Origin: Malacoraja senta
Lineage: Eukaryota
Reading direction: 5' to 3'
Assembly (NCBI GenBank): GCA_038087875.1
Contig: CM075995.1
Span: 7,566,001-7,630,000, forward strand
Length of the DNA stretch: 64,000 bases
Shown here piece after piece: positions 3,605-51,669 of this stretch. The first letter of the stretch is position 1. Each line of letters begins with the position of its first letter. Made by a program: the position numbers and the translations under genes. A model generated the notes under the pieces. The model was not told the origin of the DNA and searched no databases. It was given only the letters and a program-made list of their open reading frames with translations.

Positions 3605-4080
3605 GGATAGAGAGAGAGGGAATGCTGGGGCTACCTGAAGTGAGATAAATCAATATCCATACCACTGGGCTATAAGCTGCCAAGTGAAATATAAAATGCT
3701 GTTTCAATTTGTGTTTAGCCTCACTCTGACAATGGAGGAGGCATAGAACAGAAAGGTCAGTGTAGGAATGGGATGGGAATTAAGGTGTCCGGCAACCGGG
3801 AGATCAGGTAGATTCACGCGGGCTGAGCGAAGGTGTTCCGCGAAACAATTCGCCCAGTCTGTGTTTGGTCTCGCCGATGTATAAGATTCCACATCTTGAA
3901 CAACAGATACATGAGATGAGGTTGGAGGGCGCAAGGCGCAAGTCAACCTCTGCCTGACCTGAAAGGACTGTCGGGGTCCCTGGACAGAGAGTGAGGGAGG
4001 AGGTATAGCGACAGGTGTTGCATCTTCTGCGGTTGCAGAGGAAAGTACCTGGGATGGGGATGGTTTGGGTGGGGGAGGGA
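3605..4080 (-). mobile_element. Penelope GIY-YIG fragment
   Basis: QGPRQSFQVRQRLTC...FAEHLRSARVNLPDLPVAGHLNS, homologous to 6700-7075. Confidence 0.8.
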
Positions 4081-6629: not shown

Positions 6630-7146
6630 GCTTTCCGCAGAGACCGCTCCCTCCGTAACTCCCTGGTCAATTCGTCCCTTCCCACCCAAACCACCCCCTC
6701 TCCTGGCACTTTCCCTTGCAACCGCAGGAAATGCTACAATTGTCGCTTTACCTCCCCTCTTGACTCCATTCAAGGACCCAAGCAGTCGTTCACCTGCACC
6801 TCCTCCAACCTCATCTATTGCATCCGCTGCTCTAGATGTCAGCTGATCTACATCGGTGAGACCAAGAGTAGGCTTGGCGATCATTTCGCCGAACACCTCC
6901 GCTCGGTCCGCAATAACCAACCTGATCTCCCGGTGGCTCAGCACTTCAACTCCCCCTCCTATTCCGAATCCGACCTTTCTGTCCTGGGCCTCCTCCATGG
7001 CCAGAGTGAGGACCACTGTAAATTGGAGGAGCAGCACCTCATATTTCGCTTGGGCAGTTTGCACTCCAGCGGTATGAACAGTGAAGGTACACAAAAATGC
7101 TGGAGAAACTCAGCGGGTGCAGCAGCATCTATGGAGCGAAGGAAAT

Positions 7147-15101: not shown

Positions 15102-16719
15102 CAGTGGCTTGCAAAAGTATTCATACCCCTTGAACTTTTCCACATTTTGTCACATTACAACCACAAACGTAAATGTATTTTATTGGGATTTTATGTGATA
15201 GACCAACACAAAGTGGCGCATAATTGTGAAGTGGAAGGAAAATGATACATGGTTTTCAAATTTTTTTACAAATAAAAAACTGAAAAGTGTCGCGTGCAAA
15301 AGTATTCAGCCCCCTTTACTCTGATACCCCTAAATAAAATCCAGTGCAACCAATTGCCTTCAGAAGTCACCTAATTAGTAAATAGAGTCCACTTGTGTGT
15401 AATCTAATCTCAGTATAAATACAGCTGTTCTGTGAAGGCCTCAGAGGTTTGTTAGAGAACATTAGTGAACAAACAGCATCATGAAGCCCAAGGAACACAC
15501 CAGACAGGTCAGGGATAAAGTTGTGGAGAAGTTTAAAGCAGGGTTAGGTTATAAACAAATATCCCAAGCTTTGAACATCTCACGGAGCACTGTTCAATCC
15601 ATCATCCGAAAATGGAAAGAGTATGGCACAACTGCAAACCTACCAAGACATGGCCGTCCACCTAAACTGACAGGCCGGGCAAGGAGAGCATTGATCAGAG
15701 AAGCAGCCAAGAGGCCCATGGTAACTCTGGAGGAGCTGCAGAGATCCACAGCTCAGGTGGGAGAATCTGTCCACAGGACAACTATTAGTCGTGCACTTCA
15801 CAAATCGGGCCTTTATGGAAGAGTGGCAAGAAGAAAGCCATTGTTGAAAAAAAGCCATAAGAAGTCCCGTTTGCAGTTTGCCACAAGCCATGTGGGGGAC
15901 ACAGCAAACATGTGGAGGAACGTGCTCTGGTCAGATGAGACCAAAATTGAAGTTTTTGGCCTAAATGCAAAACGCTATGCGTGGCGGAAACCTAACACTG
16001 CACATCACCCTGAACACACCATCCCCACTGTGAAACATGGTGGTGGCAGCATCATGCTGTGGGGATGCTTTTCTTCAGCAGGGACAGGGAAGCTGGTCAG
16101 AGTTGATGGGAAGATGGATGGAGCCAAATACAGGGCAATCTTGGAAGAAAACCTGTTAGAGTCTGCAAAAGACTTGAGACTGGGGCGGAGGTTCACCTTC
16201 CAGCAGGACAACGACCCTAAACATACAGCCAGAGCTACAATGGAATGGTTTAGATCAAAGCATATTCATGTGTTAGAATGGCCTGGTCGAAGTCAAGACC
16301 TAAATCAAATTGAGAATCTCTGGCAAGACTTGAAAATTGCTGTTCACAGACGCTTTCCATTAAATCTGACTGAGCTTGAGCTATTTTGCAAAGAAGAATG
16401 GGCATAAATTTCAGTCTCTAGATGTGCAAAGCTGGTAGAGACATACCCCAAAAGACTTGCAGCTGTAATTGCAGCGAAAGGTGGTTCTACAAAGTATTGA
16501 CTCAGGGGGGCTGAATACTTTTGCACGCGACACTTTTCAGTTTTTTATTTGTAAAAAAAATTGAAAACCATGTATCATTTTCCTTCCACTTCACAATTAT
16601 GCACCACAATTATGCACAACTATCACATAAAATCCCAATAAAATACATTTACGTTTGTGGTTGTAACGTGACAAAATGTGGAAAAGTTCAAGGGGTATGA
16701 AAACCTTTGCAAGCCACTG
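15102..16719 (+). mobile_element. Full-length Tc1 DNA transposon (DD34E, IR/DR type, Passport-like)
   Basis: TA TSD at 15100-15101 and 16720-16721. Long TIRs starting CAGTGGCTTGCAAA. Central transposase ORF. Confidence 0.96.
15481..16500 (+). pseudogene. Tc1 transposase with one premature TAA (16405-16407)
   Basis: PAI-RED HTH with GRPPK, then WSDETK, QQDNDPKH and DLNQIEN (34 residues between D and E). The frame continues ISVSRCAKLVETYPKRLAAVIAAKGGSTKY* to 16500. Confidence 0.92.
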
Positions 16720-41210: not shown

Positions 41211-42946
41211 AGGTTAAAGTGCACATTGACAGACAGTCTGAAGAAGGGTCTCGACCCGAAACATCGCCTATTTCCTTCACTCCAAAGATGCTGCCTCACC
41301 CGCTGAGTTTCTCCAGCATTTTTGTCTACCTTTGACAGACAGCCTAGTCGCCTATAGTCGCCTAAAAATCGACTAAGTGGGCAGGCCAATTAGAGACATC
41401 AGCCAAACTTTAGACTTATCAGAATCAACTGTTTGGAACATCATTAAGAAGAAAGAGAGCACTGGTGAGCTTACTAATCGCAAAGGGACTGGCAGAACAA
41501 GGAAGACCTCCACAGCTGATAGACAATAGACAATAGGTGCTGGAGTAGGCCATTCGGCCCTTCGAGCCAGCACTGCCATTCAATATGATCATGGCTGATC
41601 ATCCCCAATCAATACCCGTTCCTGCTTTCTCCCCATATCCCCTATTTTTAAGAGCCCTATCTAGCTCTCTCTTGAAAGCATCCAGAGAACCAGCCTCCAC
41701 TGCCCTCTGAGGCAGAGAATTCCACAGACTCACCACTCTCTGTGAGAAAAATTGTTTCCTCGTTTCCGTTCTAAATGGCTTACTCCTTATTCTTAAATGA
41801 CAGAAGAATTCTCTCTATAATAAAGAAAAATCCCCAAACACCTGTCCGACAGATCAGAAAAACTCATCAGGAGTCAGGTATGGATTTGTCAATGACCACT
41901 GTCCGCAGAAGACTTCATGAACAGAAATACAGAGGCTACACTGCAAGATGCAAACCACTGGTTAGCCGCAAAAATAGGATGGCCCGGTTACAGTTTGCCA
42001 AGAAGTACTTAAAAGAGCAACCACATTTCTTGAAAATGGTCTTGTGGACAGATGAGACGAAGATTAACATATCAGAGTGATGGCAAGAGCAAAGTATGGA
42101 GGAGAGAAGGAACTGCCCAAGATCCAAAGCATACCACCTCATCTGTGAAAGAAGGTGGTGGGGGTGTTATGGCCTGGGCATGTTTGGCTGCTGAAGGTAC
42201 TGGCTCACTTATCTTCATTGATGATACAACTGCTGATGGTAGTAGCATAATGAATTCTGAAGTGGATAGACACATCCTATCTGCTCAAGTTCAAACAAAT
42301 GCCTCAAAACTCATTGGTCAGCAGTTCATTCTACAGCAAGACAATGATCCCAAACATACAGGTAAAGTAACAAAGGAGTTTTTCAAAGCTAAAAAATGGT
42401 CAATGGCCAAGTCAATCACCCGATCTGAACCCAATTGAGCATGCCTTTTATATGCTGAAGGAAAAACTGAAGGGGACTAGCCCCCAAAACAAGCATAAGT
42501 TAAAGATGGCTGCAATACAGGCCTGGCAGAGCATCACCAGAGAAGACACCCAGCAACTGGTGATGTCCATGAATCGCAGACTTCAAGTAGTCATTGCATG
42601 CAAAGGATATGCAACAAAATACTAAACTTGACTCCTTTCATTTACATGACATTGCTGTGTCCCAAACATTATGGTGCCCTGAAATAGGGGGGGACTATGT
42701 ATAAACACAGCTGTAATTTCTACATGGTGAAACCAAAATGTATAAAAATGGCCTTTATTAAAATCTGACAATGTGCACTTTAACCACACGTGATTCTTTT
42801 TTCTATTACAAATCTCAAATTGTGGAGTACAGAGGCAAATAAATAAATGATGGGTCTTTGTCCCAAACATTATGGAGGGCACTGTATACACTGTGAATGG
42901 CTCAATTGTAATGATGTATAGTCTTTCCGGTGATTGGTTAGCACGC

Positions 42947-43000
42947 GGGGTGGGAGATTGCAGCCTTCATGTGGTCCGCCTTGTTTCGACGAATGCAATC
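42947..43000 (+). ncRNA. HDV-like self-cleaving ribozyme (54 nt, minimal)
   Basis: P1 GGGGUGG/CCGCCUU, P2 GAUUGCA/UGCAAUC, P3 GCC/GGU, L3 UUCAUGU, tiny P4 with UUCG, J4/2 CGAA. Confidence 0.78.
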
Positions 43001-43086
43001 AACCCGGCGTGCACAATCAAATAAGATCAAATAGAGCAAGTTGTCCTACAACTTTAGGCTGTGCACATCATACGCAAGAAGAAGAA
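42947..43086 (+). mobile_element. 140-bp non-autonomous retroposon (possibly Ingi/Vingi-related) with a (GAA)n tail
   Basis: TSD GTTAGCACGC at 42937-42946 and 43087-43096, inside a Rex1-type 3' UTR. Confidence 0.85.
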
Positions 43087-44360
43087 GTTAGCACGCAACA
43101 AAAGCTTTTCGCTACCTTGGTACGCGTGACAAGAAGCTAAACAATAAACTGAACAAAACTAAAAATTTGTGTGATGTATTTTTGCGAATTTTTAAACCTG
43201 ACCTTTTTGAAGCTCGAGCACATTCAGATCACCTGACTGTTGATGAAATAACTATTGCCTTATTTAGTTTTGTTAATAGATACAGCACGGAAACAGGCCC
43301 TTCGGCCCACCAAGTCCGTGCCGACCAGCGACCCCCTATCCTACACACCAAGGACAATTTTTACCCAATCCAAATTAACCTACAAACCTGTACGCCTGTG
43401 GAGCGTGGGAGGAAACCGGAGCACCCGGGGAAAACCCACGTGGTCACGGGGAGAACGTACAGACTCTGCACAAGGCAGCACCCGTAGTCAGGATCGAACC
43501 CGGGTCCCTGGTGCTGTAAGGCAGCAACTCGACCACTGCGACACTGTGCCGTCCCACCGATTCTTTTATTTATTTTGTACTTTATGATTAATATTTTTAT
43601 TAGTAGTGTACAGTAGTATAAACCACGGCCTATGACAAAATACATTTTTTGTACATCCTCCATTTTAATTTTGACAAAGAAGAAATAGAAAAGGAGAGAA
43701 AGAGCAAGAAAGAGAGAAAGTGAAAGAAATAGTGAATGGGTAAACCGCTAAACTACCAAATAGTGTAGTCAAAGAGTGAATAAGTAAAAACCTAAAAAAG
43801 AATAAGAAAACAAAAATGAAAAATATTTTTTTTTAAAAGGGACGTGTTGATAAACCTGCTTCATTTCTCACCACACCCATCACCCAGTCCGTAAATTGGT
43901 TTAATTCCAAAATTGTGTTGCACCACATACTATACTTGTAATGAATCAATGAAAGGAGACCATATCTTTGAAAATTGCTCTGGTTTTCCTGCTAAGACGA
44001 GTCTCATATCTTCAAGATGTAGCGTCTCAGACATGCTTGTAATCCACATTTTAAGAGTTGGGGAAGAAGCATTTTTCCAAAATTTAAGTATGTTTTTTTG
44101 CCATTATCAGGCCGTAATTAAGGAAACGTCTTTGAAATATTGATAGCTCAGAGCAGGCTCCTCTTTTTTTTTTTGATAAAGTAATTTCATTTATGGACAG
44201 ATCCAATATTGGTAATACGAAAGATCGCACAATTTATAATCAAAATTGAATACTATTTCATATTAAAACCACTTTCTTGATTTTATCAAAGATCGAGTTA
44301 AAAGATGAGACAACTTTCTGAACGTGTTGTTTTCTTGACATTAATTCAAAGATATAGAGT

Positions 44361-51377: not shown

Positions 51378-51609
51378 ATGGCCGGGCTGTCGGTGTCGGT
51401 GTCGGCGGCGGCGTCGGTAACAGCGACAGCGACGGCAGCCCACGGCGAGGCGGCCTTCAACCCCCAGGAGAAGGAGCTGGCGGATCGCTTCAGGCGCCTC
51501 TACCCGGCCGTGGACGAGCGGGAGACGCCGCTGCCCCGCTGCTGGAGCCCGAAGGACAAGTACAGCTACATCGGCCTGTCTCAGAACAACCTGCGGGTCC
51601 ACTACAAAG
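51378..51609 (+). CDS. RANBP9: RANBP9 (RanBPM) first coding exon, start of the SPRY domain
   Basis: Kozak GCCGCCATGG. Encodes [45 protein letters not shown]. Donor AAAG|GTGAGC. VDE and QNNL match RANBP9 better than RANBP10. The rest of the gene lies beyond the window. Confidence 0.93.
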
Positions 51610-51669
51610 GTGAGCCCGCGGGGGGGGGGGGGGGGCTGACCGACCAGGGCCTTGCTTAGCAACCAGCCC

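Follow-up and report, generated by a model that had tools for sequence, protein, structure and literature searches.

What is a 140-bp insert that opens with what looks like a self-cleaving ribozyme and closes with a (GAA)n tail, and what gave it so sharp a 5' end? In the window, by which we mean the whole 64-kb stretch of DNA analysed here, such an insert occupies positions 42947-43086, between 10-bp direct repeats at 42937 and 43087, just as the preliminary description had it. In L157 an uninterrupted copy of the host repeat crosses the insertion site with the duplication motif present once and exact; a second uninterrupted copy (L063) has it once with one mismatch, and a third (L117) is more degenerate. 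Because uninterrupted host repeats have the motif only once, the 10-bp repeat is a true target duplication. Contigs of organisms B and C match the 3' flank from 43087 on, with about 77 letters before it unaligned, which is a weak hint of an empty site; the joint 42946/43097 that an empty site would have was not among the matches listed for contigs from the three organisms.

The element is intergenic. Its neighbours have the same orientation: the stop of a CCDC90-like gene (PF07798) lies about 9 kb before it, and a putative RANBP9-like exon 8.5 kb after it. The latter is a GC-rich first exon at ~51460-51620 on the + strand, which we take to be RANBP9/10-like; Pfam gave no match on this exon piece. 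A transposase-like fragment at 42034-42438, also without a Pfam match and presumably Tc1-like, sits in the DNA-transposon-like element nearby. The repeats in this neighbourhood point to a cartilaginous fish. The features are as follows.

4440-33970, + strand: exons of the CCDC90-like (MCUR1-type) gene at ~4500, 19400, 31750 and 33950 (stop), with PF07798 on the 31.7-kb exon
15469-16407, + strand: Tc1/mariner transposase open frame, 312 aa (PF01498, PF25787, PF13358)
41212-42886: DNA-transposon-like element with 22-bp inverted arms at 41212-41233 and 42764-42785, ending 50 bp before the duplication
42887..43160, + strand: older interspersed repeat hosting the insert, in pieces 42887-42946 and 43087 to ~43160
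42937..42946, + strand: left target-site duplication, GTTAGCACGC, a single copy in uninterrupted host repeats
42947..43000, + strand: putative HDV-like ribozyme fold of 54 nt, matching the parent LINE 5' end (from the descriptor, LINE identity, compensatory changes in L190 and L250, and the Rfam CPEB3 consensus)
43001..43023, + strand: remainder derived from the LINE 5' UTR, containing the 5' arm (43005-43015) of the end-to-end helix
43024..43040, + strand: junction filler found only in the dominant deletion class, its best LINE match repeating part of the neighbouring 5' UTR sequence (12/18 bases)
43041..43075, + strand: part derived from the LINE 3' end, with the last ORF codons, the stop at 43055-43057, the 3' arm at 43060-43070 and a terminal CATACG motif
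43076..43086, + strand: (GAA)n tail
43087..43096, + strand: right target-site duplication, GTTAGCACGC, 150 from the left copy

Does the head of the insert deserve to be called a ribozyme? All the helices of a nested double pseudoknot that had been named for it are in place, and a compact HDV descriptor (a 7-bp P1, a P2 of 6 or more and short joiners; features as in the excerpted text of PMC6326823) finds one match in the 64-kb window, exactly at 42947-43000, and none in 20 dinucleotide shuffles on both strands. A relaxed descriptor was left out as evidence since it matches shuffled DNA, with 0-6 chance matches per shuffle (8 shuffles). On the + strand, the predicted parts of the fold are these.

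Between 42946 and 42947, + strand: predicted cut, before G1
42947-53/42976-82, + strand: P1
42954-55, + strand: J1/2, 2 nt only
42956-62/42994-43000, + strand: P2
42963-65/42973-75, + strand: P3
42966-72, + strand: L3
C42968-G42983, + strand: P1.1, one pair
42984-89, + strand: vestigial P4, 6 nt
42990-93, + strand: J4/2, with the putative catalytic C42990

A G1-Y pair is present at the base of P1 in the nested P1/P2/P3 double pseudoknot, as are U20, C22 and G25 of L3 together with G37, and P1.1 is a single pair, which is also the case in the CPEB3 consensus. Compared with the family majority, the window copy carries A17G (P3 A-U to G-U), C24U in L3 (UUCACGU in the family) and C35U (P1 G-C to G-U). 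P1 had been described with a single wobble, G1-U; the helix itself stands, but in the window copy P1 has three wobbles, C35U being among the changes. Judged from its sequence, the window copy is decayed, with pairing kept as wobbles. The comparison with Rfam's HDV-like models that the preliminary description proposed gave no ribozyme match on the window copy, on the near-majority copy L085 or on L240 (the first two at E<=10), and the window copy reached no gathering threshold. In a nested minimum-energy fold, the element as a whole does not stand out (z 0.48), as one would expect of a pseudoknot. P4 is absent from the element as a full helix, only 6 nt being left of it; according to the excerpts of PMC6326823, P4 is dispensable in minimal HDV-like ribozymes. 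The excerpts of PMC4908430 report for another ribozyme that there is no activity with no J1/2 spacer, and little with a 1-nt spacer. A one-pair P1.1 combined with a nearly absent P4 could make for a slow ribozyme. We regard the fold as very probably homologous to HDV-like ribozymes and its catalytic activity as likely, and cleavage probably set the 5' ends of source elements. Whether the window copy itself would still cleave well is rather doubtful, its putative activity being less likely than that of the family majority.

The family to which this copy belongs is large. A 25-nt pattern from the 3' part has 3,152 exact matches in the 1.94-Gb genome and a 35-nt pattern from the core has 4,593, against 0 for the reversed controls. 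From the 28 of 40 3'-selected copies that fit the core pattern, we arrive at ~6,500 copies, a rough and probably low estimate. For the 5' ends, we used the first 40 of the 3,152 matches, which lie on contig C1 and were chosen by their 3' end alone; two of them, L078 and L079, share flanks and represent a single insertion event. The G1 region is reached in 38 of the 40, the other 2 being 5'-truncated, and a duplication was detected in 36 of these 38, with lengths of 7-14 bp and a mode of 12. It ends at G1 in 16 copies and one G later in 15, which places the 5' end at G1 in 31 of the 36 copies with a duplication, as would be anticipated if the proposed cut defines it. A further 19 copies chosen by the core pattern are all of one class, and 18 of them reach the G1 region.

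The fold is fully intact in 18 of the 40 sampled copies, and median divergence from the family majority is 4.5% among the 3'-selected copies. Counted by eye among 100 copies listed, J4/2 reads CGAA in 55, CUAA in 28, CAAA in 13 and UGAA in 4. The differences between subfamilies (P1 U-A to U-G; CUAA to CGAA; J1/2 GA/AA) all leave the fold unharmed. Furthermore, the family is present in contigs of all three organisms compared. Sequencing runs searched with the flanking DNA of L085 included no RNA run among those listed, a result that concerns the flank and not the expression of the element. The median divergence, the lack of an intact parent and the three ribozyme substitutions in the window copy suggest that the family is now mostly fossil. 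Substitution counts at CpGs give no clear sign of selection among copies: the catalytic CpG has fewer C44T than G45A changes (301 vs 581), and a non-catalytic loop CpG shares this excess of G-to-A (~35 vs 19, by eye among 200 matches listed); at the L3 CpG, C24T and G25A are equally frequent (438 each), although G25 should matter. Over element positions 41-45 we observed G-to-A exceeding C-to-T by ~2:1 at both CpGs in which the G is followed by A, an excess that is absent at the L3 CpG, where T follows, and that would be a strand-specific or context effect.

So where do the two ends of the element come from? The preliminary description had supposed an Ingi/Vingi-type partner LINE, and such a parent was reached by way of two element copies with a different middle: a Vingi-like LINE of 3.1 kb, which shares both ends of the element. 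L155 and L158 each span ~3.1 kb of it, and L158 has both element ends inside its own duplication. Positions 1-77 of the element are 88-92% identical to LINE 5' ends (L158, L172, L175), and positions 95/100-140 are 85-92% identical to LINE 3' ends, the 3' part including, upon translation, the last codons and the stop of the LINE ORF. From these identities, it is as good as certain that the element consists of the first 77 and last ~45 bases of the parent LINE, as a bipartite derivative made by internal deletion. The earlier picture of a SINE-like parasite thus holds insofar as this is a retroposon without a tRNA head, but not as an independent SINE with a borrowed tail, since its ends were joined by a deletion within the LINE.

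The parent encodes a PF14529 endonuclease (APE), a PF00078 RT and a C-terminal knuckle. RNase H was found neither in the parent nor in P0001, an intact relative of 1,019 aa that is 72% identical to the parent protein, nor among the domains precomputed for the listed homologs of ~1,000 aa; the nearest homologs of P0001 are of this length and have the same domains. The single ORF of the parent is taken from P0001, the parent's own copies being broken, with no intact ORF among 21 long copies. The parent is also rare: 800 bases of its 5' region give 36 matches, nearly all of them 85-96% identical. Against an I-group-like ORF from this genome that includes RNase H, the RT of P0001 reaches 157 bits; it reaches 117 against a CR1-like ORF and ~81 against L1 by another program; a C-terminal knuckle of the form C-x-C-G...H...C is common to P0001 and the I-group ORF. 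Matches in the PDB were only to RTs of L1, R2 and group II introns, and the 10 pattern matches in viral contigs included no relative. The Vingi architecture described in the excerpted text of PMC13708176 (single ORF, APE endonuclease, RT, no RNase H) fits the parent. From this architecture and from the RT scores against I-group-like, CR1-like and L1 sequences, the parent likely belongs to the Vingi clade.

Another route to the parent, via PF14529, was abandoned, the top 20 loci being without DNA similarity to the element; the main PF14529 family consists of an I-group-like ORF of 1,277 aa that does have RNase H. At L253 (142-3975), we observed a young LINE ORF of this I-group-like, 1,277-aa type, with many open genome copies of the same length and, by eye, an endonuclease, an RT and an RNase H-like region. 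Separately, in L135, L138, L149, L157, L159, L164, L168 and L170-L173 the 5' and 3' parts of the parent LINE are oppositely oriented, suggesting frequent inversion on insertion. The minus-side flank of L170 (~500-2100 on +) has frames like those of an LTR retrotransposon gag-pol beside the LINE fragment.

The dominant class is not the only derivative of this LINE. Among 30 loci anchored on a 5' UTR motif there were 4 LINE 5' ends, 24 deletion-class copies and 2 that are interrupted or unclassified, the 24 falling into four deletion classes of 8, 5, 8 and 3 copies. There are thus at least four independent deletion classes, and all of them retain the ribozyme with the arm that follows it, as well as the (GAA)n tail with the complementary arm that precedes it. 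The shortest, of ~120 bp, is without the AAGTTG/CAACTT hairpin, which is therefore dispensable. The 3' part had been credited with two stems of its own; of these, GTGCACA/TGTGCAC turns out to be formed by arms from the LINE 5' and 3' ends, and AAGTTG/CAACTT is real only in the deletion class of the window copy.

Pairing between the two ends recurs beyond the element, at varying strength. In the near-majority copy L085 the end-to-end helix is 11 bp long (z -3.0, 3/300 shuffles). The parent's own decayed LINE copies pair weakly, with z -0.5 and -1.8, and -2.6 for ends taken from two different copies. In L230, L225, L223 and L212, which form one lineage with a sequence unrelated to that of the element, there is extensive pairing between the last 50 bases and the 50 that follow the ribozyme (z -3.6 to -5.8, 0/200 shuffles each). 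The complementarity in L230 lies at ~3940-4000 versus 7017-7075, in what appears to be a separate Vingi-like lineage, and L223, L225 and L212 are alike in this. We infer that end pairing may serve as a recognition or circularising structure.

Because copies within one genome decay neutrally, distant relatives were examined for signs that the fold is meaningful. A metagenome scan provided 77 loci from 408 confirmed relatives, and 7 of the 77 contain the P3-L3 core. In 24 loci the region upstream of the ORF was examined, and L190 alone passes a strict descriptor, which also gave 2 chance-like matches inside coding regions. L190 and L250, whose proteins are 45% and 37% identical to P0001, respectively, have a G1-to-P3 spacing of 16 nt as in the element family, and their P1, P2 and P3 are fully paired. 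The covariation of P1-P3 that the preliminary description proposed to look for among copies is seen between lineages: across the three of them, both-sided changes affect 7/7 P2 pairs, 2 P1 pairs and 2 P3 pairs, a count that leans toward the model because the P2 3' strands were picked as the best-pairing 7-mer. A C is located four bases before the P2 3' strand in each of the three lineages, and the catalytic C, the U/C/G of L3 and G1-Y are kept while the helix sequences differ. J4/2 of L250 is CUUA, and CCAA in its sister copies. When aligned with the Rfam CPEB3 model, L190 is in register and scores 15.8 bits, below the cut-off of 35. Both relatives have a full P4, which suggests that the element lineage lost its P4 to arrive at 54 nt. 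In L176 and L180, neither an HDV-like fold nor end pairing was found. At L240 (279-360), we saw a degenerate HDV-like fold related to that of L190, with a 7-bp P4 and, by eye, one mismatch each in P1 and P2.

How, then, would such a short element be multiplied? The explanation that we consider probable as a whole is that of a bipartite LINE derivative with a 5' end set by its ribozyme, which the LINE protein mobilises in trans. RNA polymerase II would read through a source copy from a host promoter, and the 54-nt HDV-like ribozyme, whose fold is assigned by comparison, would cut before G1 to leave a defined 5' end, which the compact fold may also shield. The arm behind the ribozyme is predicted to pair with the arm before the tail; in the LINE, such pairing would bridge 3 kb of RNA from one end to the other, and the short element would acquire a local 11-bp stem from it. 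The LINE protein would then bind the 3' end in trans, and target-primed reverse transcription, which is established biology for non-LTR elements, would yield the duplications of 7-14 bp. A need for both ends would explain why every deletion class keeps both.

The sharp 5' ends are in themselves compatible with another mechanism, in which a polymerase II promoter inside the first ~80 bases sets the 5' end, and the fold either is left over from a ribozyme, now weak or dead, or does no more than protect the 5' end. The loss of P4, the 2-nt J1/2 and the lack of a selection signal at G25 would suit it, and Pr77 of L1Tc/NARTc is described as both promoter and ribozyme in the excerpts of PMC4035085 and PMC3383444. 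A promoter of this kind is nevertheless unlikely, given that 31 of the 36 copies with a duplication have their end exactly at G1, that the catalytic C, L3 U/C/G and G1-Y persist across three lineages, and that subfamily differences all spare the fold. If the dominant class were instead a polymerase III SINE, with degenerate A and B boxes within the ribozyme region, this would account for its weak box-like matches at +5 (3/11 mismatches) and +38 (2/9), and the class is without the T4 run that other classes keep. These matches are at chance level, however, no tRNA was detected in the element, which has no tRNA-like head, and the 3.1-kb LINE and the T4-bearing classes have the same 5' end, all of which makes a polymerase III origin extremely unlikely.

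A parent from the RTE clade rather than from Vingi would leave the mechanism unchanged. RTE elements have a single ORF without RNase H and are known to have HDV-like ribozymes, and no named Vingi sequence occurs among the 240 homolog matches listed. The RT scores of P0001, taken against I-group-like, CR1-like and L1 sequences, and the knuckle that it has in common with the I-group ORF speak against such a parent, which we deem very unlikely. As for the fold being nothing but a chance pattern in a LINE 5' UTR, the missing Rfam match and the relaxed descriptors that match shuffled DNA would allow for it; the silence of the compact descriptor in 20 shuffles, the position of the fold exactly at the element's start and the compensatory changes in distant relatives make it scarcely credible.

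A more far-reaching joint reading is put forward tentatively, and we would sooner bet against it than for it. Vingi-type LINEs as a group would start with an HDV-like ribozyme, and their RNA would become a ring when the arm that follows the ribozyme pairs with the 3' end; nothing more than the ribozyme, the tail and the two arms, ~120 nt together in the shortest class, would be needed in cis for insertions that are nearly always full-length; and this lineage's P4-less 54-mer would be active, with ~3,000 intact-fold copies (extrapolated from 18 of 40) in a vertebrate genome. If true, Vingi is one more LINE clade whose elements open with a self-cleaving ribozyme, and a vertebrate has a natural HDV-like ribozyme that lacks P4. 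End-to-end pairing moreover offers a testable answer to why few clades yield bipartite derivatives, a question raised in the excerpted text of PMC5786205. From the four natural deletion classes one can read the minimal cis elements of Vingi-type RNA, which bear on Vingi-1_Acar gene-writing systems, whose templates are, according to excerpts of PMC13708176, flanked by both UTRs and prone to truncation. Thousands of potential cut sites should also bias orientation in host introns. Given the identical core, an element of this kind could even be the ancestor of the mammalian CPEB3 ribozyme, an idea that we mention as a long shot.

How does the element compare with known systems? Kojima and colleagues reportedly described, in 2011, non-autonomous derivatives of Vingi-1_EE in hedgehog. 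As far as these are summarised in later literature such as PMC5786205, they resemble the present case in comprising several independent internal-deletion families of one single-ORF, RNase H-less vertebrate LINE. In the excerpted texts compared, no ribozyme or end pairing is reported for Vingi, and no P4-less HDV-like ribozyme from a vertebrate. The lists of Ruminski (2011) may include Vingi-type elements named as Ingi, and the Vingi/SINE alignments in the supplement to PMC5786205 may bear on novelty. The consensus of the CPEB3 ribozyme (Rfam RF00622) has the same G1-U, the same L3 UUCACGU, GU after P1 (a one-pair P1.1) and a J4/2 CGAA equal to the family majority. It differs in being single-copy and intronic with a full P4, and the element scores nothing against its model. 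Minimal HDV-like or theta ribozymes (bioRxiv 10.1101/2023.06.13.544163) are likewise without P4, small and with a short J1/2; in the excerpted preprint they come from gut phages and metagenomes, often beside tRNAs, and it reports no minimal forms in human, mouse or protist genomes.

With regard to overall design, R2 SIDEs (PMC3414825, in excerpt) also combine a 5' HDV-like ribozyme with the 3' end of a parent LINE and are mobilised in trans; unlike them, our element has an APE-type, Vingi-like parent, dispersed insertion rather than rDNA sites, thousands of copies and a 54-nt ribozyme. NARTc, RIME and SIDER of trypanosomatids are short derivatives of Ingi-group LINEs with the parent's HDV-like ribozyme at their head, as outlined in the excerpts of PMC4035085, in which several ribozymes of such Pr77-headed derivatives are active in vitro and several are not. 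Here the differences are that Pr77, at 77 nt, has a P4 and doubles as a promoter, that the parents encode RNase H and that the hosts are protists. The excerpted texts of PMC6765202 and PMC5786205 add, respectively, that some metazoan LINEs and SINEs use HDV-like ribozymes, and that RTE, Ingi, Vingi and R2 are known to have given rise to bipartite derivatives. With these likenesses in design, the element is best described as a bipartite non-autonomous LINE of the SIDE/NARTc-like, known kind, and not as a new class of SINE.
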